Assembly (NCBI GenBank): GCA_018817165.1
Contig: JAHITY010000005.1
Span: 1-59,155 of the forward strand
Length of the DNA: 59,155 nt
DNA from: Candidatus Omnitrophota bacterium
GTDB taxonomy: Bacteria; Omnitrophota; Gorgyraeia; B26-G9
Direction of reading: 5' to 3'
Shown here: positions 4,036-59,155 of the stretch, one piece after another
How positions within the stretch are numbered: the stretch's first letter is position 1
Layout: each line of letters starts with the position of its first letter
Made by a program: the position numbers and the translations under genes
The notes under the pieces: generated by a model
What the model saw: the letters and a program-made list of their open reading frames with translations, nothing else
Told to the model about the DNA's origin: nothing
Databases searched by the model: none

Positions 4036-4051
4036 GCTAAAGGAAATTTTT

Positions 4052-6392: not shown

Positions 6393-6592
6393 ATAATAAA
6401 GTTTCGAGATGAGAACCCGAAAAAAGGGTTATAGGGAAAAAGCGGGTTTTTCCTTATAACCCTTTGCTAAAGCTTCGGAGGACAAGTCGGCGTTTGTTTA
6501 TCTATTCTAATTATACCCCCTTGATGTGTGTGTGCTTATCTTCGGTAAAACCGTTTCTCATGCTTAAAAGAGTAACTGTTTTTACCCCCCTA

Positions 6593-10469: not shown

Positions 10470-10474
10470 TAAAC

Positions 10475-12070: not shown

Positions 12071-12227
12071 GTTAACCCCCTGTATATTTTTAATGTTAAG
12101 ATAAATAAAGCTACAATATTTTATGCCAGAATAGACAATTTTAAATGTTAACTTAGTATATAGTAAAATAGTTGATTTTGCAAATTTTTTGACAAAAACT
12201 TACTTATATGATAAAGTTCAAAACAGG

Positions 12228-12857
12228 ATGAAAGATGCAATTAATCAATTAATACAATACTCACACAGTATAGCAGCGCGGGACCTGGTCCTAGGCTCAT
12301 CGGGTAATATTAGCTTAAAGTCTGGAACGGATATGCTGATTAAGGCCAGCGGCGTGTGTATGTCCGAATCGCAGAGTTCTGATTTTATAAGAGTGGATTT
12401 AAAAAATCTCTCTTATAAAAATAAAAAGCTCAAGCCCAGCTGTGAATCAAAGATGCATGCAATATGTTATGCCATGCGTCCGGAGATTAATTGCGTGATT
12501 CATACCCATCCTTTATACGCAACTACTTTGGTTAGCTGCTCAATTAATCCTCGTTTAATTTCTCCGGAATTCATTCTTTCAATCGGCTCTGAGATGAAGG
12601 TGGTTGAATATGCTTGTCCTGGGACAGAGGAATTAGCGGAAAGAGTGGGCCAAGCAGTAAAAAGTTCGAATATTGTTTATCTGAAAAACCACGGGCTTTT
12701 AGTTGTGGGAAAAACTTTGCAGCAGGCTTATACCAGGACATTGCTTGCCGAACAGATGGCTAAAATGCAAATTATCGGGCAGCTTTTAGGTAAAAAGCTT
12801 AAAGGCTTAAGTTCTGCTCAGGCTAAAAAATTATTAGCCCATCTGCAGGTTAAATAA
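12228..12857 (+). CDS. class II aldolase/adducin-family protein
   Basis: GSSGNISLK, metal-binding HTHP, NHGLLVVGKT; ATG 12228 preferred over the track's TTG 12189. Confidence 0.75.
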   Translation: MKDAINQLIQYSHSIAARDLVLGSSGNISLKSGTDMLIKASGVCMSESQSSDFIRVDLKNLSYKNKKLKPSCESKMHAICYAMRPEINCVIHTHPLYATTLVSCSINPRLISPEFILSIGSEMKVVEYACPGTEELAERVGQAVKSSNIVYLKNHGLLVVGKTLQQAYTRTLLAEQMAKMQIIGQLLGKKLKGLSSAQAKKLLAHLQVK

Positions 12858-12891
12858 TTTTGCAGCCTAAACAGGGAAGGCATTAAATTGC

Positions 12892-13872
12892 ATGCTTGAT
12901 GAAAAAGTTGCTCAAAGAATAAGCCTTGCCTTGAATTTTAAACAATCTGACCGCATTCCGATTTGTGAGTTTATCGATAATCCAAAAGTATTTGAATATT
13001 TTTGTCATGACTCTAATCCTTCGATTGAAGATAAGGTAAAGGCATACCATCAGTTGGGCATTGATATTTGCTGGCGCTTTGAAAGACGGCAAAGCTTGCG
13101 TTATCAAGGCATTTTAGAAAAACTGCAAAGATTTGCTTTACGCCAAAAAAAAATTAATGCTTTAAGTCCGTTCGAATTAAGTGAAGAAATTGATGATTTT
13201 AAGCAGCAGCAAAAATTATTTTATCCCTTTACTTGTTTGGCTATGTCGGTTGAGGGGTGTTTGAGTATTGCCTATAAAACTTTTGGATTTGAGGCGTTTT
13301 GTAAGAAAATGTATGTAGATTTGCTTGAAATAGAGAAGCTTATTGATATTTGTGCTGATAATCTTTATCAAAGAGCTCTGCGTTTTGCTGATGAGGAGCT
13401 TGGGCAACTTTTTTTTATAAAAGACCATATTGCTTATGATAAGGGTTTGCTGTTTTCAAAAAATTTTTTGTTGCGGCATTGGATCCCTAAAATTAAACAA
13501 GCAATAGCGCCTTTAAAAGAAAAAAATATAAAAGTAATTCTTCATTCTCGAGGAAATTTTACGCAAGTAATCGATGATTTACAGCAAGCTGGTTTTGATG
13601 GGATTCATCCGATTGATTCCCAATCAGGGATGAATATTGGATTAATAAAGAAACAGTATGCTAAAAACTTGCTTTTATTTGGGAATGTTGATCTTAAAGC
13701 CAGTCAAAGTTCCGGCCCTGATCAAATAAACGCGCTTACTCGAGAATGCATTAAAAAGGCATCATATGACGGAGGGCATTTTATTGGCACTGTTCATGGA
13801 ATTAATCGAGATTTAAAGCTGCAGCAAGTCCTTTCTTTTTTTTCCGCAGTACGAGATTTGAGCGCAATCTGA
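12892..13872 (+). CDS. uroporphyrinogen-decarboxylase (URO-D)-family protein, function unclear
   Basis: Length and C-terminal LLFGNVD..., GGHFIG pattern resemble URO-D/MtaA-like TIM-barrel enzymes; weak by-eye assignment. Confidence 0.45.
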   Translation: MLDEKVAQRISLALNFKQSDRIPICEFIDNPKVFEYFCHDSNPSIEDKVKAYHQLGIDICWRFERRQSLRYQGILEKLQRFALRQKKINALSPFELSEEIDDFKQQQKLFYPFTCLAMSVEGCLSIAYKTFGFEAFCKKMYVDLLEIEKLIDICADNLYQRALRFADEELGQLFFIKDHIAYDKGLLFSKNFLLRHWIPKIKQAIAPLKEKNIKVILHSRGNFTQVIDDLQQAGFDGIHPIDSQSGMNIGLIKKQYAKNLLLFGNVDLKASQSSGPDQINALTRECIKKASYDGGHFIGTVHGINRDLKLQQVLSFFSAVRDLSAI

Positions 13873-14020
13873 TCTCAATTTTTTAACCGCAAAAAATAAT
13901 ACTATAAGTTATTGTTAACAGTAATGTTAAATTATTTGTAAAAACTTTTAATATGTGTTATACTATATATGGTAGTCAGAGATGTGATTAACGCCATATG
14001 TGGGATAGGGGGTCGGAGTA

Positions 14021-14590
14021 ATGCTTTTTTTTAGTGAACTTATTAAACATATTATAAAACTAAATAAAATATGCTTAATAAGTTTGATTGTTTTGGCCTG
14101 TATTTTCTCTCGGACAAGTCAAAACCTAATAAAAGCGGATACTTTAACTGATGTTGTTGCAATTGTTTCAGATGAATATGATATTCCGGAAGAATTAATA
14201 AGGCATATTATTCAAGCTGAAAGCAGTTTTAATGAAAAAGCTGTCAGCTACTGTGATGCAAGAGGTTTAATGCAGATTACTCGTCCTACTTGGGAGTGGA
14301 TAACTCAGCAGTATCTGGAAGTTGACTGGGATTTTGATCAATGCGCTTTTGACCCAGAGAAGAACATTAGGGTAGGAACTCGTTTCTTGAGATGGATTAA
14401 TGATTATCTAGATCAAAAACAGGAATTGCTGAATGGCCCAAAGCAAGATCTTGTTTTAGCTTGTTATAATGCTGGTCCGGGAAATGTCAGAAAATATAAT
14501 TATTCAGTGCCTCCATTCAAGGAGACCGAGGATTATATTAAAAAAATTAACAATATGTCTAAAACTGCATATTTATTTGCTCGCAGATGA
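14021..14590 (+). CDS. lytic transglycosylase (SLT domain), membrane-anchored
   Basis: Catalytic-Glu motif AESSFNEKAVSYCDARGLMQIT and AYNAGPGNV; N-terminal hydrophobic anchor. Confidence 0.8.
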   Translation: MLFFSELIKHIIKLNKICLISLIVLACIFSRTSQNLIKADTLTDVVAIVSDEYDIPEELIRHIIQAESSFNEKAVSYCDARGLMQITRPTWEWITQQYLEVDWDFDQCAFDPEKNIRVGTRFLRWINDYLDQKQELLNGPKQDLVLACYNAGPGNVRKYNYSVPPFKETEDYIKKINNMSKTAYLFARR

Positions 14591-28616: not shown

Positions 28617-30092
28617 ATGAGTGATGATATATTGGATTTGCGGATCAAAAAGATCGAAGATTTAAAGGCGCAGGGCGTGTGTTTGTATGGTGGCAGTTTT
28701 CCCAAGAAACATAGCGCTTTATGGATAAAAGAAAATTTCGCGGAAAATGCTCAGGTTTGTTCTGCGGGCAGAATTATGGCTTTGCGGGCGCATGGGAAAA
28801 GTATATTTGGCGATATTAAAGACATAACCGGCAGAGTTCAATTCTATATTAAAAAAGATAATGTGGGTGATGAAGTTTTTGAATTTTTGAAGAAACTGGA
28901 TATTGGCGATATCATTGGCTTGGAAGGGGAACTTTTTTTAACACATACTGAAGAACCGACGATAAAAGTAAAAAAAGTAGAAATCTTGGCCAAGGGCATG
29001 CGGCCGCTTCCGGAAAAATGGCATGGATTAAAGGCTGTTGAGGTTCGATATAGAAAGCGTTATTTAGATCTAATTTCCAATGAAAAGGTTAAAGATGTAT
29101 TTATCAAAAGAAGTAAAATTATAAAAGAAATCAGAAAATATCTTGATGCTCAGGATTATTTGGAAGTTGAAACTCCGATGATGCATTCTTTGGCTGGCGG
29201 CGCGGCGGGAAAACCATTCAAAACTCATTTGGATGCTTTGAATATGGATCTGTCTTTACGGATTGCTCCGGAACTGTATCTTAAAAAATTATTGGTTGGA
29301 GATCTTGAACGGGTTTATGAAATAAATCGCAGTTTTAGGAATGAAGGGCTTTCAACTAAGCACAATCCGGAATTTACGATGTTGGAAGTTTATACTGCTT
29401 ACGCGGATTATCGAAAAATGATGGATTTGGTTAAAGGAATTATTATGCATATCGCGGATAATGTTATTGGCACAAAGCAGCTTGCTTTTGGCGATCAGAC
29501 AATTGATCTGACTAATTGGGAAGAAGTGTCATTTGCCGTATTAATGCGCGATAATTTTGATATTAATCCTGATGATTCTGAATTTCAGTGGTTGGAGAAG
29601 CTAAAGAAGAAAAATGTGAAAGTTGAGCTAAGGGAAGGAAAAATCAGTCGGACTTTTATTCTTAATCTGATCAGTGATTTAATTGAAGAAAAATTACAGA
29701 CAAATCATCCGGTTTTTATCACCGATATTTATACCGAACTTTGTCCTTTGGCCAAAAAGAAAAAAGATGAACCTTTGCTTAGTGAGCGTTTTGAGCTTTT
29801 TATGGGCGGCATGGAAATTGCCAATGCTTATTCTGAATTAAATGATCCGATTGAACAAAGAGAGCGGTTTTTACTTCAGGCTAAAGAGGAATGTAATGCT
29901 AAAATAGATGAAGATTTTGTCGAAGCTCTGGAATATGGTATGCCTCCTGCTGGAGGGTTAGGGATTGGGATTGATCGCTTGGTTATGCTGTTTACCAATC
30001 AGACCTCGATCAAGGATGTTATCTTATTTCCTCAATTAAAACCTGAAGTCCAGATTGCTGAGGCAGAATCAGAAGCGAACGCGCAGGAATAA
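28617..30092 (+). CDS. lysS: lysine--tRNA ligase (class II)
   Basis: OB-fold N-terminus, class II motifs YEINRSFRNEG, FELFMGGMEIANAYSELNDP, GGLGIGIDRLVM. Confidence 0.95.
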   Translation: MSDDILDLRIKKIEDLKAQGVCLYGGSFPKKHSALWIKENFAENAQVCSAGRIMALRAHGKSIFGDIKDITGRVQFYIKKDNVGDEVFEFLKKLDIGDIIGLEGELFLTHTEEPTIKVKKVEILAKGMRPLPEKWHGLKAVEVRYRKRYLDLISNEKVKDVFIKRSKIIKEIRKYLDAQDYLEVETPMMHSLAGGAAGKPFKTHLDALNMDLSLRIAPELYLKKLLVGDLERVYEINRSFRNEGLSTKHNPEFTMLEVYTAYADYRKMMDLVKGIIMHIADNVIGTKQLAFGDQTIDLTNWEEVSFAVLMRDNFDINPDDSEFQWLEKLKKKNVKVELREGKISRTFILNLISDLIEEKLQTNHPVFITDIYTELCPLAKKKKDEPLLSERFELFMGGMEIANAYSELNDPIEQRERFLLQAKEECNAKIDEDFVEALEYGMPPAGGLGIGIDRLVMLFTNQTSIKDVILFPQLKPEVQIAEAESEANAQE

Positions 30093-47415: not shown

Positions 47416-47610
47416 ATGGATAAAGAACTTAAGTTTATGAAAACAGCAGCGTTGATTTTTAAGGTCTTATCCTGGTTTTTTGTTGCGTTTTTTATTTTCG
47501 TGGCGATAGTTACTTTGCTGGGATTTGCAGATAATACTCCGCGAATTGGAAGTGTTGTATTTATAATTGGAGGAGCTTGGTTTTTTCTTGTTTTTTTACA
47601 GTATCAGTAA
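47416..47610 (+). CDS. small membrane protein, apparently truncated in TM2; the -1 frame continues to 47729
   Basis: SD ggaggt before ATG 47416. The stop falls inside a hydrophobic helix right after a T7 run; the -1 frame is open for 43 more codons. Confidence 0.5.
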   Translation: MDKELKFMKTAALIFKVLSWFFVAFFIFVAIVTLLGFADNTPRIGSVVFIIGGAWFFLVFLQYQ

Positions 47611-47756
47611 GCTTGAAGCTTATCGCTGATATTTCTGAAAATTCTCAGAATCAGGAAGAATCAGTACGAAAATTAAGCATTAAGCTTGATAAATTGGTTT
47701 CCTTACTCGAAGGAAAGCCTTTGGCTTAATATATTAAAATAAAACTTGTTAAAGCC

Positions 47757-47785
47757 TTGACAAACTATTGCATGGATGCTATACT
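47757..47785 (+). promoter_or_regulatory. sigma70-type promoter of the giant-gene locus
   Basis: TTGACA 47757-47762, 17-nt spacer, TATACT 47780-47785; about 290 nt upstream of the first ORF. Confidence 0.6.
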
Positions 47786-47834
47786 TTAAACATAAGAAAA
47801 CAATTTATAAAGTTTCAAAAAGTAAATTGTTTAT

Positions 47835-48055
47835 CCGAAAAGGCAAACCTGCTGAAAAGTGGGGACGTCTCGATCCTTTAATAAATGGGTCGTGACCGTG
47901 AATCCGAACGAAGTGAGTGGTTCACGGCAAAGCTACGGGTCTAAAGCAAAAGCAAGGATCGCCGAGCGCACCGATAACTTAATGCGACGATATGAGCTAT
48001 GATAGCCGAGCTACCGGAGTGTACGAATAAGTATACTTTGAGTGCGGTTTTTTTT
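47835..48055 (+). promoter_or_regulatory. structured 5' leader, candidate c-di-GMP-I (GEMM-I)-like riboswitch with terminator-like T8 run
   Basis: ggcaaacc-tgct-gaaa-agtg-gggacg (47842-47867) resembles the GEMM-I GNRA hairpin. Also acggcaaagc (47924-47933), caccgata (47969-47976), several hairpins and a T8 run at 48048-48055. Confidence 0.35.
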
Positions 48056-48073
48056 ATGTAAAGTGAGGATCTG

Positions 48074-48550
48074 ATGAAAAAAAGTTTCTGGTTTAAGATC
48101 ATTACGATTATAATAATCCAGGCAATTTTGCTTACCCAAGTAGAATTTGCTTTGGCATCTACATTCAGTAGTAAAGATCTTTGCCGGGAAGCTGCTTTAA
48201 AATATCAGAAAATAACCAGCAGAACAATCAGTTTGATATTTGGAATTGGTTGTTTGCAATTAAATTCCAGATCACGCCAATTAGATAAGCTGTTTAGTTT
48301 ACTTACCAGTGACAGTTTTAAGCTAGCAGAAAATGTATTAGCAAGTAAATCACATAACACTAGTAAAGACATTTATAAAGTTTTTGCTTTAACTGTTTTT
48401 AATTGTAATACAGTTAATAATCAATATGTTGCTTTAATTATAAATAAAGCTCAAGCTGCTGTTTGTTGGATGTCGGGAACTCAGGAATCCAGAGGTCCTC
48501 CAATGATTACAAAAAATATTGAATCAAATTTTAATAGCCGAATTGTTTAG
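48074..48550 (+). CDS. small anchored or secreted protein sharing the N-terminal WFKII motif with the giant ORF
   Basis: SD gtgagga before ATG; N-terminus KKSFWFKIITIIIIQAILLTQVEFALA. Confidence 0.55.
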   Translation: MKKSFWFKIITIIIIQAILLTQVEFALASTFSSKDLCREAALKYQKITSRTISLIFGIGCLQLNSRSRQLDKLFSLLTSDSFKLAENVLASKSHNTSKDIYKVFALTVFNCNTVNNQYVALIINKAQAAVCWMSGTQESRGPPMITKNIESNFNSRIV

Positions 48551-48596
48551 TTTAGCAATTCGGCTTTTTCTTTTTATCTTTAAGGGAGGTGTGGTT

Positions 48597-48941
48597 ATGG
48601 ATGAGAGACGCAGGTTTGAAAGAAATGGTGTTGAGTGTCCTTTACAAATTCAGGCAGTAGAAGCAGCGCAGTACATGATTAGAAATTCATTTTGCAATAA
48701 TGTTAGTCCAGTGGGCATGTCAATAACAACTTTTGATTTTTACCCGGTTAATGGAAAAGTGCATTTGAATTTACTTTCCAATACATTGACTAGCATGGTA
48801 GAAGCAATTGGCAGGGTTGTTTGGGTAAGAGAAATGCCGCATCAGAAAAGATTTAAAGTGGGTATAGAATTTGAGGATCCTAGTGAGAGTTTAATGCAAA
48901 AAATAAAAGCATTGATTTCTAAAAAATCAGAGAGGCAGTAA
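48597..48941 (+). CDS. PilZ-domain protein (c-di-GMP receptor)
   Basis: RRRFER (RRxxxR) followed ~25 aa later by NVSPVG (D/NxSxxG); SD agggagg upstream of ATG 48597. Confidence 0.75.
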   Translation: MDERRRFERNGVECPLQIQAVEAAQYMIRNSFCNNVSPVGMSITTFDFYPVNGKVHLNLLSNTLTSMVEAIGRVVWVREMPHQKRFKVGIEFEDPSESLMQKIKALISKKSERQ

Positions 48942-48943
48942 AC

Positions 48944-49582
48944 ATGAATTATTGCAAATTACCAAGCCATATTATTAAAAGTTTTATATTGCTATTTATA
49001 TTTATATTATTTGGTTTAATTATAAACCGGCTGGGGATTTGTCAAATGGAGAAAATAGATGGTTCAAAAGACCAACAGCAGAAAGCAACATTAACCGAAA
49101 ATAGTTCCGTCAATGTAGTTCCTTATACAAAGGGTGCGGCAGCTTCACCTGCTGGATCATCAATTACTCGGGGAGCAAAACTTGAACAAACGGTTAAGGG
49201 TTTAAATGACGCGGGATATTCATTAGATGAAGTTACTGTAATTTTAAAAAATGATAAAAATGATGCTTCAACTGTAAGCATCGCATGTTTAAAACAGGGG
49301 TTTAATGGACAGCAGATTTATAAATCTTTATTAAAAGCCGGCTATTCAAAAAAAAGTGCTGACTTGGCAGTGCCTTTATCAATCAGGCCGGAGATTCAGA
49401 TTTTGGGCATATCAACAAATTATAATGAAGCGATAGATTCATCATTAGCGGGGAAAAATAATAAAGTTTCTCTATCGGTCTCGGAAAGTGTAATGCAAGT
49501 TCCGGTGTCTGTTGGAGTGACTTTTAATGGATTAAGTAATTGGAATTCATTTCAGGATAAGAGATTTTCAAGTGAAAGGTAG
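48944..49582 (+). CDS. membrane-anchored or secreted protein with 14-residue helical repeats
   Basis: N-terminal hydrophobic segment; repeats TVKGLNDAGYS / LDEVTVILKND / VSIACLKQGFN / GQQIYKSLLKAGYS. Confidence 0.6.
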   Translation: MNYCKLPSHIIKSFILLFIFILFGLIINRLGICQMEKIDGSKDQQQKATLTENSSVNVVPYTKGAAASPAGSSITRGAKLEQTVKGLNDAGYSLDEVTVILKNDKNDASTVSIACLKQGFNGQQIYKSLLKAGYSKKSADLAVPLSIRPEIQILGISTNYNEAIDSSLAGKNNKVSLSVSESVMQVPVSVGVTFNGLSNWNSFQDKRFSSER

Positions 49583-49673: not shown

Positions 49674-50993
49674 GTGATGAAGAAAAAAATTTTAATAAGT
49701 ATGATAATGATGATTAGTTTTGTTTGTATTTTCTCCGGGGAGGCTAACAGCCAAATTATAGGCAGAAAAACTGATGGCTCTGAATCGGAGGGTCTCCAAA
49801 AATGGATCCTGAAATTGTCCAATAGCTTAGGGGTCAGCTCAAGGCCTAACGTTGTTGCTGTATCAAGTGATGATACCGCGGTAACTGCTGTTCAGAGCGC
49901 GAATGAAGAAACAGCGCTCACTCCTATTCAAACCGCGACATCTGTTGCTTCTGGTTTAATTGCTTCCGGGACAATTGATAAATCTGTTGTTAAAGCAACA
50001 TTGATGAGTTATGGGTATGGAGAAACTGAAGCAGAAATCGCTTTTACAAAAGCAAGTACAAATAATGTTTTAGATAATATGATGGTTGTTCCGGTTGTTG
50101 ATAAGATAACAATATCGCAGGAATCTACTATGTCAACACTTGCTCCTGGAAATAGAGTTAAGCAAGGATTAAAGCCTCAATCAAAGTTTCAAAAGGGCAG
50201 GATCGCTAATTATATGAAAGATCCTAAGCAAACTGTTAGGCAGGATGAAATCAATACAACAACTGAGATGCTGGATGAAGGATATACTGTTGTTCAGGTT
50301 GCGCAAGGTTTCGCTGCTAATGGCTATACTTCTGCTAAAACTGCCGCGATATTTCAAGCGTCGGGGATTAGCGCAAAGGATGCTTATAACGCTTTAAGCA
50401 GTATGGGGATTGGTGAGGGAAAAGGATCAATCCTAAAGTCATGGGCTGCGGTTTTTAAACGTTTTGGTAGTAATGTAATGATTAAAGACCGACAAGAAAC
50501 TCAAAAACAGGAGGCGATTAAATCAACAGTAAATGATCTTGCCTCAGCCGGCTATGATGTCACAGAAGTATTAGGTGTAGTTGTGCAGGATTTAAAAGAT
50601 ACAGGAATGACAGCACAGCAGACAAACGATTTTTTAATTGAAAAAGTAGCTGACGGTACAGGAAAGCCAATAGCTAATTTCAGGAATGCTGGCAATATTT
50701 CTTTAAGTTCAATTGTAGGCGTAATTCAAGGCAGAAAAAATGGTGGATCTGTCTCAATGACTTCTTATGGTCAGGGAGAAATAGCATTAGCATCAGCAAT
50801 GATTAAAGCCGGCTATTCAACATCAGAAGTAGCGTCTTCATTTAAAACAGGATCGTATTCCTATACTAACGCGGATACGCAAAAGATACTATCTCAAACA
50901 AATATATCCAACCCGGCAAGTCCGGATACAACAACTAATAATAATACTCAAGAAGATTTGCTTAAGCGTAATACGCAAGCATTACCGATTTAA
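49674..50993 (+). CDS. secreted protein with 14-residue helical repeats
   Basis: SD aaaggagg; Sec signal KKKILISMIMMISFVCIFSGEANS; repeats such as EMLDEGYT VVQVAQGFAANGYT SAKTAAIFQASGIS AKDAYNALSSMGIG. Confidence 0.65.
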   Translation: MMKKKILISMIMMISFVCIFSGEANSQIIGRKTDGSESEGLQKWILKLSNSLGVSSRPNVVAVSSDDTAVTAVQSANEETALTPIQTATSVASGLIASGTIDKSVVKATLMSYGYGETEAEIAFTKASTNNVLDNMMVVPVVDKITISQESTMSTLAPGNRVKQGLKPQSKFQKGRIANYMKDPKQTVRQDEINTTTEMLDEGYTVVQVAQGFAANGYTSAKTAAIFQASGISAKDAYNALSSMGIGEGKGSILKSWAAVFKRFGSNVMIKDRQETQKQEAIKSTVNDLASAGYDVTEVLGVVVQDLKDTGMTAQQTNDFLIEKVADGTGKPIANFRNAGNISLSSIVGVIQGRKNGGSVSMTSYGQGEIALASAMIKAGYSTSEVASSFKTGSYSYTNADTQKILSQTNISNPASPDTTTNNNTQEDLLKRNTQALPI

Positions 50994-51022
50994 TATATTA
51001 AATATAAGGGGGAGGTCAAATC

Positions 51023-54000
51023 ATGTATGACCAAACAGGAAAACTGTGGTTTAAAATCATCGCGTTTATTGTGCTGGAAGCATTTCTATTTACAATTGCT
51101 GATGTTTCTTGGGCAGCTAATTATCGCGATCAGCGCGGCTCGCAGCAAATGGCGCTTGATTCTCAGAAAAATAAAAAAGAGAAAGATAATGTATCGGCTG
51201 ATGCTCTGAGCAATCAGTTGGTGCTTACCCAGCCGGCAATGCCTTATATGGGTTTTGGTCAAATTACCCCTCAAGGACAACAGGGATTAGAATCAATATC
51301 TTTAATTGATACAACGATTTCTGGTCTTTCAATTGCGGGTAATGATTTATCCGATATTTTTACAACGCTTAAGAGTTCGGGATGTTCAGTCAGTGAAGCT
51401 GGCTTTGGCGCGATGCGGCAAGGTTTTGCTAAAAAAGAAATATATCATGCCTTGATCAGCGCGGGATATGATAAAGATGAAGTTAAAACATTGCTGGGCA
51501 GTTTACTGAAAATGGAATCAGAAACAAAAAAACAAGATGAAGCAGCTGTTCAAACAAAGACCGGACCTCCCCAAGAACAGTCGGAACAGGATAAGACTCA
51601 GCTTAATCAAAAAAAGGCAATATTTGAAATCCCCAGTGTAACTGACCTTCCGATTGAAAAAGATGTGACAAAAATTGTAGAAAAAACAGTTCAACAAGGC
51701 GCAGTGCTTCGCCAAACAGTTGAATTTGTTCGTTTAATGATAAATGAAGGAAAACGCGGTAAAGAGCTTATAAAAATTCTTAAAAAAGCTGGACTAAGCA
51801 ATGAAAGAATCACTACAGCGCTCTCCCAATTAGGCTTTAATCTTAAAGATATCATAACTATATTAAAAGATTCAAATATTAGCTGCACGGATATAGTGCA
51901 GGCAATATATAATTCGCAAGTTAACTACAGTGATAAAGACATTTATACCGCATTATTAAAAGCCGGATTTTCCGATCAAGAAATAATTAATGCTTTAAGA
52001 AACGTGGGGATGAATGCCGCAGATATTTTAAAACTGACAACCGAGCTTGGCCGAAGTATGACGCAAGTTGCTGACGCAATGGTAAAAGCAGGATTTAATG
52101 TCGCTGAAATTGCCACTGCCTATGTGCTTAAGGCTATGCAGTGGACATGGGATAATTCAGTTAATGTTATAAATTGCGCGGTCAAAGCTTTTGACGCTTT
52201 TCTTAACAATGTCGGAAGGAAATTCTCTTCAAAACAAGATTTAGCATATGAGCTGATAGTTGATGATATTCTAGCAACCGGAGAAGTCCTGATTCAGAAT
52301 CAAGATGTTATGACCTCAATGGTCGCGATTAAGAATGTTGCCCAGAATCATGGTATTGATTTAGAGGGATATAATCTCAGCCTTAATAGTTTGCTGGAAC
52401 TTGAGGGTGTATCAGTAGTGCATTTGGATGGAGATCACTGGGTTACTTTAGTTGGTATTGATGGTGATCAGGTTACGATTATTGATAATGGCACAGAAGA
52501 AGTTATTTCACTTAGTGAATTTCAGATTCGCTGGGATGGAAATGTTTTAGCTTTTAATCAGCAGGAAATTAGTCAGGATAAATTGATTGATCTGCAGATG
52601 CGCGAGATTCGTGGCGGCAGGGGATTGCTGAGTGTTCTTACTTTAGGTCTTAGTGATGTAGTAGAAAAAGTAGTAGACGTCGTAGTTGATGTGGTTAAGA
52701 AGGTGTGGGATGTTATTAAGGTAGTTGTCATCGTTGTTGTCGCTGCGGTATTAACTTATGTAACTGCCGGAGCTTTAGCTCCGGTTTTTGTCGCGGCTTT
52801 TGCAGCTACAACAGCTGTCGCTGTTGCTGCTTGTACTGCATTGGCAGCTGCTGTTGCCAGCTTTGCCGTAACTTTTTGTATGGGAGTACTTCAAGGACAA
52901 TCATTTGGTGAGGCATTTAAAAGCGCGCTTATTGCTGGTGTGGTTGCCGGGATTGCTTCGGGTATTAGTTCATATGCTAATTTTAGTTCACCAACAGGGA
53001 CCCCAACCACAACAGGAGGTACTTCTTTTGGTGGGTCTGAAGCAGCAGTATCTGGTACAACCGGAGGTGCAGGAGCAGGTGCAGGAGCAGGTGTGGGTGC
53101 AGCAACTGGTTCAGTAGCTAGTTCAGCTGGTGGCACAATCTTAGGTGTAAGCACGGTTTCAATTGCTAATGCAGCTATAAGCGCGGTTAAACAAACTGTT
53201 GTGAGTTATGCCTTGACTAAGTTAATGGATGCAGCAGGGATTGATAATGTTTATTTACGAGCAGGGATTGTTGGCGCGGCCGGAGCTTGGGCAGGTAGTT
53301 CTGCTGGAACACTGAGTGTTGAAAATGGCAGTTGGAGCATGGCAACTGGGGAATTAATGACCTCGGAAATTGCCAAGCAAATGCTCACCGGAGCAGCAAC
53401 TCAAATTTCCATGGAAGCAATCAAACAACAAGGTTATAAGCAGGGATGGGATCCATTACTCACTGATGGTTTATCTTTGACTGTCGGTACTTTTGCCAAT
53501 ATCGCAACCAGTTCAGCATTAGACATATATAATGGCAAAGAAATAAACACAACAAAATTTACTAATCCGGCTGGTGATCGTTTTGATACTAATTTTTCTA
53601 ATTTATTTGTACAGAACTTTAAGTCATCTGTTGGAGAACTAATGGGCGCGTTAGCATCCAAAGCAGTTGACCGGATATGCCTTCAAAATAATGTCGATCC
53701 AATATTGTCTGCCGGATTATCTTCGATGAGTACAAGTCTTTTTACCAGTTTGACCAACTTTGCAGTAAATGATAGTGATTTTGGGATGACTGATATTGGT
53801 AATGCTTTGAGAAAAGGGGCTGGCTCTGCCATGGATGCAGGGTATAAAGATTATTTGATCAGAGATTTAGGTTATACTCAAGCCGAAGCCACTCAGACGG
53901 CATATGGAACTTCTCTTGTATTCAATATGTTCAGTCAAAATTTAGAAAAGGGAACATCCCCAACTCTTGAAAGCACAATCCAGTCACTTTTCAATGATGG

Positions 54001-57000
54001 GGTCAAGAGCCTTGGTTTTACCAATGAATATAATGGTTCATCATATAATCAGACAAAGTACTTAGATACATTTGATTCAGAAATAGATACTCTGGAATAT
54101 ATGATGTATGCCAGTGATGCAGGAATTACTCTTGATGATAATGGGGTATATCGTAATTCTGATGGCAGTGAAAACACTTATATGAATCGCAATAAAGCGA
54201 GAACAGAATATAATCAGTATTGGAAAGAGAAAAACCCGGAAGTTTTTGATCGTTCCTCTGGTACTGCTACTGCATCAACCGGAAATTTAAGTTTCGCTGA
54301 TGCTTGGACAAAAACTCTGGATACGAGAAATCTGAGCAATATGGCCACTCAATCAGCGGCTAATTTTAGTTCAGGGGTAACTAATTTGCAGACTTCTCTT
54401 GATGTTATCAGTATTAATGCCGCGACGATGAACACCGGAGTAGCGGCGAGTTTTGGTTATAATGGGGTTATTCAATTATCCCTTGCACAGGGAACAAATG
54501 TAAACCCAGCACAAGCAATGCAAAATCTGCTTAATTATGGCCAAAATGCGACAAAGATATATGGCGCTAATGGTAAACAAATCGTCGGGCTTATGTTTGA
54601 AAATTCTGATGCTTTCTTTCGCAATAAGGCATCAGCTTATCAGGCTGTAGATACAAGTACTCCTTGGATTAGAAATCAAAGAGTATATACCAGTGATACA
54701 GCTTATAAAGATGTCGGAGTCCAGGCAAATAGTATTAAAGATTTAGTGTCAAATCAAAATCTTAGTCTGGTTTCCTACAGTACAAATAGTTTTCAAACTG
54801 ATTTGCTGTCCATGGCTGCAACAAGTTCATTTGCTGTTAATGGAAGTGTTGTTTATGATCAGTTAAACAATATTTTTATGCTCCAGAATGCGACATTTAC
54901 CTCAGATAGTAAACAGGAAACCGTTGATTTTTCAACTAAGCTGAGCAATGGAGATAAAGTTTATTTTAGCGTTCAAAGCGGTAATGGGTTTAATAATGCT
55001 GTATTAAAAACCAGCGCGGCAAAAGACGCCGCGGTATATACAACCCGGGTAGACGGTGTAGCCAAAGAATTAAAGATCGGCGATATTACTTCCAAGGCCA
55101 GCGATAAGGTTTCTTCATTAGAAGTCGCGCTTACTGTCAGCGCCAGTGGAAATTTGAATTTAGAAAGTGCATCATTAAAAGATGCGAATAAAATATTAGC
55201 TTCTGAAAATAAGCTTGCAGCAGAGATTATTAACTTGCCTTCAGGCTGTATTGTGGGAAATACAACCTTAGAGTTAGCAAATTCTACAAATGGCTTGGCA
55301 GTGACTGCGGTAGAAAATATTGATTCTAATCGGAGCATTAAGTATTCCGGAGAAGACGCGAAAATAACCAGTAAAGCCCAGTTTGTTTATAACCGAGATG
55401 GGAAAATAACCTCAATTGTAAATAAGGATATTTCTGGTAAGAATCTTGGTGTAGATATTCAGACTCAAAAAGGAAGTATTACCCTTTTTGATAATCAGAT
55501 TTCTTTTGCTAATCAAAATAATTCTTTATTAACAAATCTAGGTTCTTTTTTTGGTATGAGCAGCGCGGAAGAGTTTACAATAATTAAAGGAGAAGCATTA
55601 GCGGCTACTAATTATCAAATAATTAATTCTGTGGAACAACAGCAATCTGGAGCAGCCGGCGGAGCCGGAGAAGCCCCTGGTCTTAATAAAATAATCCTGA
55701 TTGGGGATGCTAATGGCAATCAATACATTCAACAAGGTTCGATGTTTACAATCGAAAATAATAATTGGGCGGTTAAAGATAATGATGTAATTCATAATAA
55801 TAGCGGTAAAACAATAACCGTTAGCGGCAAAGCATTTGAAAACGGTGAAATAGCTGCTGTTCATAAGGGTAATATTTTTAAAGCAACAGTTGCTGATGAT
55901 GTCAAGGACCGGGAAAATATTGAATATAAACTTGATGTTAGTGGTTTTAATCTTAATCCCTTGAATATTATACAAGTTGCAGATACAGTGGTTTCTCTGC
56001 CGATCGGAGTAATGAATGCAAACGATATTTATCTTACTGACTCCGGGGCATTAACAATTACTCAAAATATTGCTTTGCAGGGACCTGATGTAAAGGGATT
56101 ATACATATCAGCTGCAAATACTACTTTTACTCTTAACTCAGATGGCAATCAGGCTTTAAAAACTGAGTTCAGTCAGATTGGATTAAGCGGGACTTTGGAA
56201 AATCAAGGCGCGGCTGGTCTAAAAGTCGGCAGTAATCAGTTGATTGGGAATACCCAAGTAGTAGATAATAATCTTTCGACTACAACTGCTGAAAGTAATA
56301 AGATAAAAATCAATGTGACTGAGGATGCCTCTTATTATCAAGGCGGGCAAGTAACCCTGACCAATAGCGGCTTGGTTTATAAACCATCAGATATTCTGGA
56401 AATCACAGGATTGGGAAGCAGTGCTCCGAACTTTAATGCTAATACCGAACTTTACAGCGGATCCTTTGTCAGCGTGGGAAATCTTAAGCTCACCACAGAT
56501 GGCAGTTATAAAATAACTCAAAACAGTGTAATGACCACAAACGCAGACAGCAAAATTCTGATCACACTACTAAATCAATCTGGACAAAATGTCGATACTA
56601 TCATGAATCTCCAAGAAGTCAGCATTCCAGAAACCAATAAAACAGTAGAGTATTCTACTCCTGATTTTCAGAATTTTAGTGAAGCAACCGCGGGAATGAG
56701 TTTTAGTACACAGGGAATTGAGTTTACAATTCAGGATAAAGGATTAAATAAATTTGAAGCACGCAGTCAGCCAATATCTGCTGTTGCCGCCATTGAGTTG
56801 AAAAATAAAGATTCGATTTCCAGTAAGATTGATTTCAAAGAAAATGTCGAGTTGACAATCAGCCCATTGGGCAGCATTGTTACCGCGGATAATGTAACTT
56901 TTAATCAGGTTAATACTCTAAAATCCGGAGCAGAAGTAAAAGTTAATCAGGACAAGTCGGTTGAGATCGTTAGCGGCCAAATTAATTTGGCGAAAGCTGA

Positions 57001-59155
57001 TGCGCTTAAAGGTCAAAATAGTGTAGCCACAATCCAGCCTGATAAAAATAAAGAGCAGAATAAAAAAGATAATGATACAAAACCAGTATATGTCGGAGAA
57101 GCTAAAATTGATCTTTTAGGAAATAATAAATATGACTTATATGGAGATCTGAGTTTTAATAAAGATTCAGGGGTTTATTTAGCAGATAATACAAAAGTTA
57201 CTATTAACAATTTAGCGAAAGATGGCAAGGATTTTGTTAATATTGGTAATACTCGGGCTGTTGCAGGAACTTTTGGCGTAAGCCAGGGACAGATAACCGC
57301 GATAGCAGGCGGCGCGAAGCTTTTAGAGCATATTACCAAAAGCGGTGAATATATAACTTTAGAATATAAAGGAACAAAACAAGTATCCGGAAAATCAATA
57401 GATCAAGGCTGGAAGATCAATGCCAGTCAGGCAGCAATTGACAGCAAAGAATCCTGGTCTGGAACAATTCAAGGGCAGTCAGTAAATTATAGTTTAGCCA
57501 AAAAGAACAATGAGACAATCATCCAGATCAATAATGGCGCTGGAGTAGAATTAAAAAATCAAACCCTTATTGGGTATGGGAATCAAGAGTTAAAAAATGT
57601 AACAGTATTCGCCACTCAGAAATTAGCTAATGGAAATTTTGTTTATACGACTACAGATGAAAAAGCAATTGGCTTTCAGCAATTACAGAGTACATCAGCT
57701 GGTGGACCAGCCAGTCAGATGCTGGGCAAAACAATTGTTAGTATTTCCGATTCTTTTGATAATGGGCAGAGGATAAGAACATATGGCGCTCAGACAAATG
57801 GCGCATTTTGCTTAACTTTTACTGCTGATAAGGAACTGAAAGGAATCAATGTAGCAGAACAATTGGCCGGCAGTTCATTGGAAATAGTTGGCAGTGGAGC
57901 AAAAGTCAATGGTGAGACATTTTTAAAGGGAGCAATAAGTTATAACTGGAACGGCAAAGAGATCGCCAGCAGTTATAGCAAGGGCACAACACTATTAGAA
58001 GCAAATACGAGTTATGGTCAGGTAACTCGAGAATATTTAGGAGCAGACAGTTGGAAGTTTAATGCCAGCCAGTCGGCAATAGATAATAAAGCAGTATGGA
58101 AAGGAACATATAGAAATCAGTCTGTGGACTATAATGTAGCTGATAAAAATGGTGAGACCATAATCCAGATAAATAAAGGATTAGGCCTAAAAGTAGAGAA
58201 TCAGACTATTGTTGGTTATGGCAAACAGGAATTAAAAAATGTAGATGTAACTGTAACCCAGAAATTAGCCAATGGACAGTTTGTTTATACAACAACTGAT
58301 AAAGACGCGATTGGCTTACAGCAATTACAGAGCACATCAGCCGGCGGCGCGGCTAGTCAGATGCAAGGCCGGACAATTGCCAGTGTTTCTGATTCTTTAG
58401 TCGGTGGTAAAACAGTCAGAACCTATGGGGAGACTTCAGTAAAAAAAGATGGAATTAATTTTGCTCTGACTTTTACCGCAGATCAATATCTTAGTACTGC
58501 GGTTAATGTTTCAGAGCAATTAGCTGGAAGTTATTTAGAGATCGCGGGTAGCGGAGCAAAAATCCAAGGCAAAGATATAATCAGCGGATCAATTGATTAT
58601 GCGGCTAATGACAAGGGAGTGGTTGTCGGAACTTTTAGTCAAGGCTCTGAACAATATCAGGGGACAATAAAAGGTACTAATCTCAAGGTAATCAGTGTAT
58701 ATAATGGCACAGTCAATGGTGTGGACAAAGGTTGGACAATGCAGTATCAAGGCATTGGGGTGCTCAAAGAAGGCGCGGCTAAATTTGATGTCCAAATAAA
58801 TGGCAAAACATTTGAAGCAACTTTAGTCAGTAGTCAGGAAGGGTATTCTGCGCAGATTAATCAAAATGTTGGTATGAATAAGGATTTCGTGGATTCCGAA
58901 GGCGGCAAACATGGTGATGTAGAACTATTCGCCACCCAGCTTTTAGCCAGTGGTAATGTTGAATACATGGCAAAAGATAAGGGTAAGGGCGATTGGAAAC
59001 AGGAAATCACAGCAGGTGTTGCCGGTGCGCAGATAAAATATGAAGGTGCTAATAATCTGAGCGTTAAAGATCAGATAAATGCTGATGGCAAAACAATCAG
59101 AACATATACTGCAGCTAATGATGGTAATTTCCAAATAGTATTTGTCGCGGACAGA
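51023..59155 (+). CDS. giant surface-protein gene, 5' part only (2,711 codons, no stop before the window end)
   Basis: ATG 51023 preceded by SD aagggggagg (51006-51015). I read the frame codon by codon to base 59155 and found no stop; only short antisense or out-of-frame ORFs appear in the track here. Confidence 0.9.
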   Translation, partial: MYDQTGKLWFKIIAFIVLEAFLFTIADVSWAANYRDQRGSQQMALDSQKNKKEKDNVSADALSNQLVLTQPAMPYMGFGQITPQGQQGLESISLIDTTISGLSIAGNDLSDIFTTLKSSGCSVSEAGFGAMRQGFAKKEIYHALISAGYDKDEVKTLLGSLLKMESETKKQDEAAVQTKTGPPQEQSEQDKTQLNQKKAIFEIPSVTDLPIEKDVTKIVEKTVQQGAVLRQTVEFVRLMINEGKRGKELIKILKKAGLSNERITTALSQLGFNLKDIITILKDSNISCTDIVQAIYNSQVNYSDKDIYTALLKAGFSDQEIINALRNVGMNAADILKLTTELGRSMTQVADAMVKAGFNVAEIATAYVLKAMQWTWDNSVNVINCAVKAFDAFLNNVGRKFSSKQDLAYELIVDDILATGEVLIQNQDVMTSMVAIKNVAQNHGIDLEGYNLSLNSLLELEGVSVVHLDGDHWVTLVGIDGDQVTIIDNGTEEVISLSEFQIRWDGNVLAFNQQEISQDKLIDLQMREIRGGRGLLSVLTLGLSDVVEKVVDVVVDVVKKVWDVIKVVVIVVVAAVLTYVTAGALAPVFVAAFAATTAVAVAACTALAAAVASFAVTFCMGVLQGQSFGEAFKSALIAGVVAGIASGISSYANFSSPTGTPTTTGGTSFGGSEAAVSGTTGGAGAGAGAGVGAATGSVASSAGGTILGVSTVSIANAAISAVKQTVVSYALTKLMDAAGIDNVYLRAGIVGAAGAWAGSSAGTLSVENGSWSMATGELMTSEIAKQMLTGAATQISMEAIKQQGYKQGWDPLLTDGLSLTVGTFANIATSSALDIYNGKEINTTKFTNPAGDRFDTNFSNLFVQNFKSSVGELMGALASKAVDRICLQNNVDPILSAGLSSMSTSLFTSLTNFAVNDSDFGMTDIGNALRKGAGSAMDAGYKDYLIRDLGYTQAEATQTAYGTSLVFNMFSQNLEKGTSPTLESTIQSLFNDGVKSLGFTNEYNGSSYNQTKYLDTFDSEIDTLEYMMYASDAGITLDDNGVYRNSDGSENTYMNRNKARTEYNQYWKEKNPEVFDRSSGTATASTGNLSFADAWTKTLDTRNLSNMATQSAANFSSGVTNLQTSLDVISINAATMNTGVAASFGYNGVIQLSLAQGTNVNPAQAMQNLLNYGQNATKIYGANGKQIVGLMFENSDAFFRNKASAYQAVDTSTPWIRNQRVYTSDTAYKDVGVQANSIKDLVSNQNLSLVSYSTNSFQTDLLSMAATSSFAVNGSVVYDQLNNIFMLQNATFTSDSKQETVDFSTKLSNGDKVYFSVQSGNGFNNAVLKTSAAKDAAVYTTRVDGVAKELKIGDITSKASDKVSSLEVALTVSASGNLNLESASLKDANKILASENKLAAEIINLPSGCIVGNTTLELANSTNGLAVTAVENIDSNRSIKYSGEDAKITSKAQFVYNRDGKITSIVNKDISGKNLGVDIQTQKGSITLFDNQISFANQNNSLLTNLGSFFGMSSAEEFTIIKGEALAATNYQIINSVEQQQSGAAGGAGEAPGLNKIILIGDANGNQYIQQGSMFTIENNNWAVKDNDVIHNNSGKTITVSGKAFENGEIAAVHKGNIFKATVADDVKDRENIEYKLDVSGFNLNPLNIIQVADTVVSLPIGVMNANDIYLTDSGALTITQNIALQGPDVKGLYISAANTTFTLNSDGNQALKTEFSQIGLSGTLENQGAAGLKVGSNQLIGNTQVVDNNLSTTTAESNKIKINVTEDASYYQGGQVTLTNSGLVYKPSDILEITGLGSSAPNFNANTELYSGSFVSVGNLKLTTDGSYKITQNSVMTTNADSKILITLLNQSGQNVDTIMNLQEVSIPETNKTVEYSTPDFQNFSEATAGMSFSTQGIEFTIQDKGLNKFEARSQPISAVAAIELKNKDSISSKIDFKENVELTISPLGSIVTADNVTFNQVNTLKSGAEVKVNQDKSVEIVSGQINLAKADALKGQNSVATIQPDKNKEQNKKDNDTKPVYVGEAKIDLLGNNKYDLYGDLSFNKDSGVYLADNTKVTINNLAKDGKDFVNIGNTRAVAGTFGVSQGQITAIAGGAKLLEHITKSGEYITLEYKGTKQVSGKSIDQGWKINASQAAIDSKESWSGTIQGQSVNYSLAKKNNETIIQINNGAGVELKNQTLIGYGNQELKNVTVFATQKLANGNFVYTTTDEKAIGFQQLQSTSAGGPASQMLGKTIVSISDSFDNGQRIRTYGAQTNGAFCLTFTADKELKGINVAEQLAGSSLEIVGSGAKVNGETFLKGAISYNWNGKEIASSYSKGTTLLEANTSYGQVTREYLGADSWKFNASQSAIDNKAVWKGTYRNQSVDYNVADKNGETIIQINKGLGLKVENQTIVGYGKQELKNVDVTVTQKLANGQFVYTTTDKDAIGLQQLQSTSAGGAASQMQGRTIASVSDSLVGGKTVRTYGETSVKKDGINFALTFTADQYLSTAVNVSEQLAGSYLEIAGSGAKIQGKDIISGSIDYAANDKGVVVGTFSQGSEQYQGTIKGTNLKVISVYNGTVNGVDKGWTMQYQGIGVLKEGAAKFDVQINGKTFEATLVSSQEGYSAQINQNVGMNKDFVDSEGGKHGDVELFATQLLASGNVEYMAKDKGKGDWKQEITAGVAGAQIKYEGANNLSVKDQINADGKTIRTYTAANDGNFQIVFVADR
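51758..52132 (+). repeat. about nine contiguous 14-residue repeats within the giant ORF (aa 246-370)
   Basis: GKELIKILKKAGLS NERITTALSQLGFN LKDIITILKDSNIS ... DKDIYTALLKAGFS DQEIINALRNVGMN AADILKLTTELGRS MTQVADAMVKAGFN VAEIATAYVLKA. Confidence 0.8.
52136..52558 (+). other. C39-like papain-fold cysteine peptidase domain inside the giant ORF (aa 372-512)
   Basis: VINC(385)AVKAF ... VVHLDGDH(472)WVTLVGIDGDQVTIID(488)NG ... EFQIRWDGNVLAF. Cys-His spacing is 87 and His-Asp spacing is 16, as in bacteriocin-processing C39 domains. Confidence 0.6.
52715..52972 (+). other. cluster of ~3 predicted transmembrane helices inside the giant ORF (aa 565-650)
   Basis: IKVVVIVVVAAVLTYVTAGALAPVFVAAFAATTAVAVAACTALAAAVASFAVTFCMGVL...ALIAGVVAGIASGI. 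Confidence 0.6.
57340..59155 (+). repeat. tandem 214-227-aa repeats at the distal end of the visible giant ORF (at least 3 copies, continuing off the window)
   Basis: Equivalent Trp codons at 57410, 58052 and 58733. Shared blocks: WK(I/F)NASQ.AID, ETIIQIN, GYG.QELKNV, TQKLANG.FVYTTTD, LQQLQSTSAGG.ASQM, RTYG, LTFTAD, EQLAGS.LEI.GSGAK. Confidence 0.85.

Follow-up and report, generated by a model that had tools for sequence, protein, structure and literature searches.

Giant proteins of the Omnitrophota and related C39 systems

Giant open reading frames (ORFs) of the Omnitrophota have already been published (Seymour et al. 2023, PMC10066038; West-Roberts et al. 2023, bioRxiv 10.1101/2023.11.21.568195). 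In the second of these studies, full-length giant genes carry an N-terminal C39 peptidase domain beside signal peptides and have pilZ genes nearby, and its authors speculate that C39 may cleave the giant proteins. More recently, a 'PF03412-only' cluster of 24 proteins was described as the largest architecture among 916 long Omnitrophota proteins (2026 preprint, 10.64898/2026.06.07.730766). Here we analyze the 5′ part of a giant gene that runs off the end of a 59,155-nucleotide (nt) stretch of DNA from Candidatus Omnitrophota bacterium (contig JAHITY010000005.1), hereafter the window. This gene is a further member of the published Omnitrophota giants with an N-terminal C39 domain, and its existence is expected for the phylum; its sequence fits the 'PF03412-only' class.

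The traits in common with the published giants are an Omnitrophota genome, an N-terminal C39 domain next to a signal-like segment, a very long ORF with transmembrane helices that is otherwise poor in recognizable domains, a pilZ neighbor and fragmentation in short-read assemblies. In contrast to published giants of >30 thousand amino acids (aa), the family described here reaches 6.3–7.8 thousand aa, and its PilZ protein is encoded upstream rather than downstream. Also, no SecA_DEAD, glycosyl transferase (GT), glycosyl hydrolase (GH), NUDIX, dockerin or thrombospondin-3 (TSP3) domain was found, and no type II secretion-like locus lies upstream. Archaeovorin membership was rejected because SecA_DEAD, GT/GH, methyltransferase and NUDIX domains were not detected in the window ORF or in its complete orthologues P0009 and P0006, the C-terminal ~60% of the window gene itself lying outside the contig. 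Dockerin-type membership was similarly rejected, with no dockerin, thrombospondin-3 or discoidin repeats in the window ORF and the complete orthologues.

A giant surface protein tied to cyclic di-GMP (c-di-GMP) provides another comparison. LapA of Pseudomonas is a giant RTX adhesin exported by type I secretion, whose N-terminal retention module is cut in trans at a di-alanine by the periplasmic protease LapG under the control of the LapD receptor. Like LapA, the protein examined here is a presumed surface protein of several thousand residues in which c-di-GMP and one N-terminal cut would be tied to display. Unlike LapA, it would be controlled through a riboswitch and PilZ and has the protease built into the substrate, and no RTX or Ig-like repeats were found in it.

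Two described C39 systems are also relevant. The C39 domains of PCAT/AMS transporters share with that of the window protein a papain-like fold (TM-score 0.72–0.75), a Cys-His-Asp triad and an LSxxELxxIxGG-type motif ending in GG, GA or GS. Theirs are fused to the transmembrane and nucleotide-binding domains of an ATP-binding cassette (ABC) transporter and their motif is N-terminal on a separate small peptide, whereas the window C39 domain has no such fusion, is probably extracytoplasmic and is directly followed by the motif in the same chain. A PCAT/AMS transporter was rejected, as neither ABC_membrane nor ABC_tran matched the window ORF or its orthologues. StbD-CT, from a CdiA-like toxin, likewise contains a C39 domain inside a very large exported protein, and its auto-processing in cis at Gly-Gly was demonstrated experimentally (bioRxiv 10.64898/2026.05.07.723447). 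StbD-CT is cleaved after Gly157-Gly158, ~25 residues N-terminal to the catalytic Cys, and its peptidase is C-terminal toxin cargo; in the window protein, where the self-cut is predicted, the candidate site lies C-terminal to the domain and the whole module at the protein N-terminus.

The explanation that we favor, with moderate confidence, is that the window holds the 5′ part of a gene for a 6,000–8,000-residue, membrane-anchored and largely extracytoplasmic Omnitrophota surface protein, gated by c-di-GMP and self-cleaving. Relative to the giant-gene papers searched, in which riboswitches and double-glycine sites are never mentioned, the c-di-GMP riboswitch/PilZ operon and the precise, putatively cis-acting double-glycine site are new details. 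Within the library that could be searched, a query for a c-di-GMP riboswitch associated with an Omnitrophota giant-gene operon gave no report and returned only unrelated ComFB papers.

Reality, extent and family of the giant gene

Direct translation from ATG 51023 to the last base of the window gave 2,711 sense codons and zero stops, while the other five frames contain 117–310 stops over the same 8,133 nt. The local base frequencies (A 0.33, T 0.28, G 0.23 and C 0.16) correspond to a stop probability of 0.072 per codon, which gives ~10^-88 for a stop-free run of this length. The closest upstream in-frame stop is TAA 51005, and ATG 51023, preceded by a strong Shine-Dalgarno sequence, is the first start thereafter. 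Relative synonymous codon usage of the frame correlated with that of 14 housekeeping genes in the window (r=0.86), whereas the two shifted frames gave r=0.34 and 0.43. We conclude that the open frame represents a genuine gene.

These results agree with a sequence-only reading made earlier from the letters of the window, which had described an open frame of 2,711 codons from ATG 51023 to the last base, considered it beyond chance, and placed a Shine-Dalgarno sequence 7 nt upstream. It had also noticed that the program-made ORF track shows closed ORFs only. We obtained the same listing over this stretch: 51027–51209 (+) and the antisense pieces 54973–55338 and 55598–55975. The track leaves out frames that run off the source sequence, hence the absence of the giant gene, which has no stop within the window. 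In practice, ORF tracks that accept closed frames only conceal the most unusual genes where contigs end.

The window is nearly the whole of ENA contig ERZ27247128:k141_517993 (59,177 bp), on which the giant gene is called as 2,711 aa touching the contig end; its truncation is thus an effect of assembly. The homologous gene is also broken off by a sequence end in 8 of 10 related loci (GTDB species representatives). Complete orthologues were found in three cases: P0009 with 7,815 aa, on a 708-kb contig (locus L007, gene 10001–33448), P0014 with 7,803 aa and P0006 with 6,321 aa. Another orthologue, P0016, is itself truncated at a length of at least 4,961 aa. Judging from the three complete lengths, the window would hold roughly 35–43% (the 5′ part) of a 19–23-kb gene encoding 6,000–8,000 residues. 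As the sequence-only reading had pointed out, the true length cannot be read from the window, since the frame runs off the contig.

Proteins from independent assemblies were collinear with the window protein: P0002 over aa 1–1630 (52% identity) and P0005 over aa 1402–2353 (74% identity). This argues against a chimeric junction within aa 1–2353; the external support ends there, and the last ~360 aa (2354–2711) have none. The earlier reading had named in-frame stops or a chimeric join as the faults that would count against it: the frame contains zero stops, and the collinear assemblies give no sign of a join over aa 1–2353. The window contig and the P0005 contig both stop inside an array of ~220-aa repeats, a break that would fit additional, more similar copies or strain variation. 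A homologue search with the last 615 aa matched the fragment P0005 only, and nothing extended beyond the window end. Likewise, attempts to extend the contig by exact-protein look-ups of window genes showed only the same 59,177-bp contig.

Three further observations concern fragments of this or related genes. The lysyl-tRNA synthetase protein of the window (28617–30092, +) is also present on a second contig of 50–200 kb, which might reach further into the giant gene. In L009, the closest relative, the homologous fragment (10001–14284) reaches as far as the position matching window aa ~1394, and P0005 begins at ~1402; the two are probably adjoining pieces of one gene in one metagenome-assembled genome (MAG), broken twice by the assembler. 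In L004, the homologue is called closed at 1,759 aa (9138–9141), where the next ORF, in another frame, overlaps it by 4 nt and matches window aa 1516–1601 (E 1e-7), so that the end called there is probably an assembly frameshift and not the true end.

A word-indexed search returned three homologues only, all partial and named as Omnitrophota or Omnitrophica MAG proteins; the names of P0002, P0003 and P0005 are consistent with the Omnitrophota assignment. An exhaustive HMMER search with a profile of the N-terminal 540 aa gave 249 matches, about a dozen of which span the whole N-terminal module. All ten related genome loci are titled Omnitrophota or, in two cases corresponding to mislabeled PVC MAGs, 'PVC group' and 'Planctomycetia'. 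The closest related locus is 89% identical in the best of its tblastn segments, which lies in the N-terminal module. By these sequence comparisons the family fits a restriction to Omnitrophota, as part of a 'C39-only' class of very long proteins of this phylum. The suggestion of the sequence-only reading that the context was of Omnitrophota type, where very large ORFs had been reported, agrees with the ten loci and with the published giant ORFs. Synteny with the window extends over PIN, IspD, IspF, hexapeptide transferase, cysteinyl-tRNA synthetase, ROK, small genes, PilZ, secreted proteins and the giant gene.

Downstream of the complete orthologues (L007 33513–41687; L008 29005–37301; L019 31732–37282) lie conserved paralogous genes of ~1,300–1,750 aa and ~530 aa. 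Over the first ~510 aa these are 36–53% identical to one another, and no Pfam match was obtained for them; in the window genome they would fall past the window end. In L014 the giant gene starts at 10541, and the match at 10001 is a small paralogous gene.

Domains of the protein and its upstream operon

The features of the locus are collected in Table 1.

Table 1. Features of the giant gene and of the region upstream of it, in window coordinates
Feature	Coordinates	Strand	Evidence and remarks
Sigma-70-like promoter TTGACA-17-TATACT, TG-extended	47757..47785	+	11/12 consensus matches; same sequence kept in L002; consensus match only
c-di-GMP-I (GEMM-I) aptamer with ~57-nt structured insertion	47832..48018	+	Rfam RF01051, 39.2 bits against a gathering score of 35
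Predicted intrinsic terminator (expression platform), then U8	48004..48056	+	dG -19.4 kcal/mol, z -4.0
First gene downstream of the riboswitch, secreted or membrane protein of 158 aa	48074..48550	+	Orthologues present at 6 further loci
PilZ-domain protein (c-di-GMP receptor family)	48597..48941	+	Pfam PF07238, E 1e-9
212-aa signal-peptide protein with AGYSxxEV-type helical repeats	48944..49582	+	37% identity to L008 orthologue
Signal-peptide protein of 438 aa, also with AGYSxxEV-type helical repeats	49677..50993	+	31% identity to L008 orthologue, full length
Shine-Dalgarno sequence AAGGGGGAGG	51007..51016	+	7 nt before ATG 51023
Giant gene, 5′ part, 2,711 codons, open at contig end	51023..59155	+	Translation, codon usage, ENA gene call
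Signal-peptide-like or anchor segment, aa 1–32, MYDQTGKLWFKIIAFIVLEAFLFTIADVSWA-AN	51023..51118	+	Hydropathy peak aa 5–32; ends SWA-AN
Solenoid of short helices, aa 94–377 (blocks 94–146 and 246–377)	51302..52153	+	AlphaFold model
C39 double-glycine-type cysteine peptidase, aa 378–520	52154..52582	+	Pfam PF03412, E 4e-9; Foldseek
Double-glycine leader-like motif, aa 521–534, LIDLQMREIRGG-RG	52583..52624	+	Directly C-terminal to C39
Transmembrane helices (2–3), aa 553–625, then G/A/S/T-rich to ~aa 760	52679..52897	+	Kyte-Doolittle hydropathy, composition
Family-conserved region, aa 626–1640, 30–52% identity	52898..55942	+	Orthologue alignments, AlphaFold
Lineage-specific variable region, aa 1641–2096	55943..57310	+	Orthologue comparison
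Three tandem ~220-aa repeats, aa 2097–2320, 2321–2545 and 2546–2711+ (last cut by contig end)	57311..59155	+	Tiled self-comparison

The PF03412 match spans aa 431–514 and the fold match extends over ~380–520. The closest Foldseek neighbors of this domain were LahT150 with bound leader (6mpz, TM-score 0.75) and ComA (5xe8, 0.74; 3k8u, 0.72), with probability 1.00, then PCAT1 (4ry2); a profile search of the PDB matched the region to 7n87 and 6mpz. Other structural neighbors include HlyB-type 3zua and StbD-CT 8ssm. An alignment of 20 sequences shows no variation in N384-C385-A386 and at least 90% conservation of H472 and D488. The AlphaFold model of aa 220–530 has a per-residue confidence (pLDDT) above 85, with Cys385 at a helix N-terminus and His472 at a strand start. 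The domain is thus predicted to be of catalytic type and not degenerate as in HlyB; a non-catalytic, HlyB-type C39-like identity was rejected because of the invariant Cys385 and the conserved His472 and Asp488.

Classical C39 leaders carry hydrophobic residues at positions -4, -7 and -12 and GG, GA or GS at -2/-1. The segment directly following the window C39 domain, LxxLQMRxIRGG (L521-I-D-L-Q-M-R-E-I-R-G531-G532-R-G), has this signature, being hydrophobic at -4, -7 and -12 with a GG/GA/GS-type pair at -2/-1. L521, Q525, M526, R527, I529, R530 and G531–G534 are invariant in the four closest orthologues, and more distant family members show QMRDIRGG, QMIEIRGG, MSNIFGA, MVNILGA, SLEIKGS or MLEIRGS. 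A strict regular expression matched once at the equivalent position in the window protein and in each of the two complete orthologues searched; elsewhere, each protein gave at most one non-conserved chance match, for 0.3–0.7 expected. The segment to aa 530 is modeled with a pLDDT of ~90 as a short helix that leads into an extended stretch.

The association of domain and motif is not limited to this family. L[ST]xxE[ML]xxI[RK]G[AGS] directly follows the C39 domain in 26 of 29 other large C39-bearing proteins, in which the domain occupies various internal positions, the motif bearers measuring 605–3,999 aa. In the large unrelated C39 proteins (P0026–P0151, alignment A7; 0.6–4 thousand aa), the motif is often followed by G-W-W/F, and ~13 proteins of this alignment have Ser in the column of the catalytic Cys. 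From these sequences, an internal C39 domain with its motif may be a widespread self-processing cassette. The window itself contains no separate gene for a GG-leader peptide and no ABC-transporter domain. We infer that the C39 domain cleaves its own chain after Gly532, the candidate site being Gly532/Arg533; cleavage in cis is supported by the recurrence of the motif in the 26 other C39 proteins and by the StbD-CT precedent.

Upstream of the peptidase, the signal-like segment aa 1–32 is nearly invariant among orthologues that are otherwise ~60–84% identical in the N-terminal module. Judged from the alignment, this conservation exceeds what an ordinary signal peptide would need. The solenoid that follows consists of 10-residue helices with a 14-residue period and the motif ALxxAGFSxxEI (pLDDT 85–95 for aa 220–370). 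Foldseek and profile searches of the PDB found likenesses to designed helical-repeat proteins only, and a PDB sequence search with the N-terminal 540 aa gave only noise.

Beyond the transmembrane helices, the conserved region was delimited by alignments to orthologues: P0009 is 30% identical to the window protein over aa 714–1633, P0006 is 35% identical over aa 1–1645 (BLASTP without composition-based statistics; with them, no match is returned), and P0002 and P0003 each cover ~60% of the query, consistent with aa 1 to ~1630. The AlphaFold model of aa 1000–1640, computed from 7 sequences, has a mean pLDDT of 57.8; within it, aa ~1210–1500 are mostly beta with pLDDT 70–88. A Foldseek search of this model against the PDB gave no match with E<1e-3, and Pfam and NCBIfam gave no domain in aa 626–2711. 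Past ~aa 800 the composition is 8–12% N, 7–10% T, 5–14% S and 4–13% G, with ~0% C.

Collinear similarity to the complete orthologues ends at ~aa 1640, beyond which P0005 alone is collinear. In aa 1641–2096 we found no similarity to P0009 and weak, non-collinear high-scoring segment pairs (~21–23%) to P0006; this region is 74% identical to the fragment P0005 only. The tandem repeats after it were detected by tiling with masking, whole-protein self-BLAST hiding off-diagonal repeats. Copies 1 and 2 share 53–59% aa and 72% nt identity, copy 3 only 27–31% identity, and the internal repetitiveness of the complete orthologues is 5–12%. P0009 contains a Pfam match to a ResIII helicase-type P-loop (aa ~5175–5293, 25.5 bits for a cut-off of 22.5) and extra hydrophobic segments at aa ~4005–4037 and ~6433–6491; together these recall the SecA-like domains of other Omnitrophota giants. 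By analogy, the missing part of the giant gene could be more than a passive stalk.

Overall, the sequence-only reading of the protein is partly supported. It missed what the first ~840 aa contain, namely the signal-like start, the solenoid, the C39 domain, the double-glycine motif and the transmembrane helices. Its description of the rest as Asn/Thr/Ser/Gly-rich, almost Cys-free and beta-strand-like matches the composition and the beta-rich part of the model. The internal repeats that it mentioned are present and modest, amounting to three diverged copies (27–59% aa identity) at the window end. The comparison with giant adhesins found no support at the level of domains: Pfam, NCBIfam, PDB sequence search and Foldseek revealed no Ig-like, cadherin or RTX-type domain, and the Foldseek check that it proposed, run on aa 1000–1640, yielded no structural neighbor. 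The likeness is an analogy and an adhesive role would be an extrapolation from it. A giant repeat adhesin of the RTX/Bap/LapA/SiiE kind was rejected, since such domains were not found and only three diverged repeats are present; we detected no arrays of Ig-like, cadherin or Big domains and no RTX matches in the orthologue C-termini, this gene's own C-terminus lying outside the contig.

A riboswitch precedes the cluster to which the giant gene belongs. RF01051 was recovered at the orthologous position in L002 (77 bits), L007 (75), L020 (67), L014 (62), L004 (61), L009 (41), L008 (31.5) and L003 (28), and overall a riboswitch is present in 9 of the 10 loci that include upstream sequence. The aptamer core is conserved (alignment A5). 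As in described RF01051 riboswitches, the score is above gathering, the position is kept and a terminator competes with the aptamer for its 3′ strand; the copies in the window and in L009 differ from typical ones by the ~57-nt structured insertion, which forms similar hairpins from differing sequences. Equivalent terminator hairpins occur in L002 (-28.7 kcal/mol, z -6.6) and L007 (-23.7, z -6.1), the stem being conserved and the loop divergent. The terminator uses the 3′ strand of the aptamer as its 5′ arm (GAUAGCCGAGCUNCCG), so that the ligand-bound aptamer and the terminator exclude each other, an arrangement that would correspond to an ON switch. L014 lacks the accessory genes; only the small gene separates its riboswitch from the giant gene, which ties the RNA element to the latter.

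The four genes between riboswitch and giant gene, encoding the 158-aa, PilZ, 212-aa and 438-aa proteins, are conserved together with the giant gene. The N-terminus of the 158-aa protein (FWFKII..IIQAILLTQ..ALA, with a GPP motif) resembles that of the giant protein (WFKII..II(Q/E)A.LLT..A), and the common sequence looks like a shared specialized targeting signal. PilZ orthologues are found in L002, L003, L004, L007, L008 and L020. The helical repeats of the 212-aa and 438-aa proteins are of the same 14-residue type as those of aa 94–377 of the giant protein, and each locus has 1–3 such accessory genes.

Two smaller observations concern the same region. An A/T hairpin lies before the giant gene in L014 (~10490–10525), comparable to one that follows the 158-aa gene of the window and is considered below. 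Upstream of the promoter, at 47416–47729 (+), a small membrane-protein gene, whose counterparts in L002 and L007 measure 94–104 aa, is broken by a frameshift that leaves one ORF of 64 aa and, in a different frame, one of 50 aa. The frameshift lies beside T6/T7 homopolymers and is either a sequencing or assembly indel or a real pseudogene.

Proposed mechanism and alternatives

The favored explanation builds on in silico evidence for the reality of the gene, its phylum and family, the C39 fold and catalytic residues, the conservation of the motif and of the riboswitch, and the competing terminator. In this scheme, the ligand-free c-di-GMP-I riboswitch would form the terminator and so gate transcription from the strong promoter. 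A high level of c-di-GMP would relieve termination and turn on the whole, presumably co-transcribed, cluster (small secreted protein, PilZ, helical-repeat proteins and giant gene). The conserved signal-like N-terminus would direct the pre-protein through the inner membrane, and C39 would then cut its own chain once, after Gly532, detaching the N-terminal module of helical repeats and peptidase from the remaining chain. Held in the membrane by the transmembrane helices, the C-terminal product would display a conserved stalk (to ~aa 1640) and a fast-diverging, N/T/S/G-rich, Cys-free and beta-rich distal part with tandem repeats, supposed to contact host or prey cells or surfaces. PilZ may add a post-translational c-di-GMP input.

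Several points weigh against this explanation. A C39 Cys protease outside the cytoplasm is atypical. The transmembrane helices number two or three and the N-terminal signal is either cleaved or anchoring, and the complete chain may span the membrane repeatedly. Apart from the ResIII match of P0009, neither aa 626–2711 nor the complete orthologues contain an adhesin, lectin or enzyme domain, and the function given to the distal part is conjecture. On the regulatory side, no riboswitch was detected in L019, the most divergent complete locus, and for three of the orthologous aptamers the highest score comes from the GGC-variant model RF03167. Finally, a terminator-like 12-bp hairpin with a T-rich tail (48536–48565, +) directly follows the 158-aa gene, overlapping the longest PilZ ORF and not the called PilZ start. 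It is possibly an attenuator inside the operon, and read-through to the giant gene would then be supposed.

Among the alternatives, an artefact is extremely improbable: the long frame would be the product of a chimeric or collapsed assembly, or a decaying pseudogene. The end of the contig within a repeat array, the homopolymer-associated frameshift in the small gene nearby and the frame change dividing the L004 homologue could be taken in this sense; zero stops in 8.1 kb with native codon usage, collinear independent assemblies over aa 1–2353 and three intact full-length orthologues speak against it, and on these grounds misassembly and pseudogene were rejected. It is unlikely, without being far-fetched, that the C39 domain does not cleave its own chain and instead works in trans on other double-glycine substrates or serves as a non-catalytic, C39-like binding domain, the motif being merely structural. 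Canonical C39 domains do work in trans on separate peptides, HlyB-type domains, with 3zua among the structural neighbors, are non-catalytic, some distant relatives have Ser in the Cys column, and cleavage of the window protein is a prediction. Against this, the catalytic residues are kept, unlike in HlyB-type domains, the window offers neither an ABC-transporter domain nor a small GG-leader peptide gene, and the motif, which fits the leader consensus at -1, -2, -4, -7 and -12, accompanies the domain across very different proteins.

The nature of the distal part leaves room for two other interpretations. The gene could encode an 'Archaeovorin'-type giant, a multi-pass protein with a SecA-like self-export ATPase and carbohydrate-active or modifying enzymes that digests prey walls rather than being mainly an adhesive stalk. 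An N-terminal C39 near a signal peptide is a typical start of such proteins, pilZ genes are adjacent to them (West-Roberts et al.), and P0009 adds its extra hydrophobic segments and ResIII P-loop; we nevertheless judge this improbable, given that the 2,711 aa of the window and two complete orthologues lack Pfam matches to glycosyl transferases or hydrolases, methyltransferases, NUDIX and SecA_DEAD, that the family measures 6–8 and not >30 thousand aa, and that no type II secretion-like locus occurs in the 50 kb upstream. Somewhat less probable still is a polymorphic toxin or contact-dependent effector, with the N-terminal ~1,640 aa as delivery scaffold, the variable C-terminal part as cargo and C39 as releasing peptidase. 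The conserved-N, divergent-C pattern among orthologues would suit it, as would the C39-like peptidases known from polymorphic toxin systems (PMC3482391) and the C39 auto-processing used by a CdiA-like protein. With peptidase and GG site at the N-terminus, thousands of residues from the C-terminus, the cut would free no C-terminal toxin. The variable part also runs to thousands of residues rather than forming a cassette of ~100–300 aa, neither the window ORF nor the complete orthologues yielded a toxin or immunity domain, and complete loci continue downstream with conserved large paralogues instead of small immunity-like genes.

Giant genes of the Omnitrophota are recognized yet functionally opaque, and one more of them by itself adds little. 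The locus described here represents a small, tractable family (6–8 thousand aa, three complete orthologues) with two testable handles. The candidate Gly532/Arg533 site beside the C39 domain makes the published speculation on cleavage a one-construct experiment, and the riboswitch and PilZ gene placed before the giant gene tie the deployment of this protein to an established lifestyle signal. More tentatively, and with considerable doubt, the cassette of C39 and cis double-glycine site, cutting the pre-protein once after export, and the ON-type c-di-GMP regulon may together form an attachment switch, by which ultra-small episymbionts or predators would deploy a hypervariable giant surface protein.

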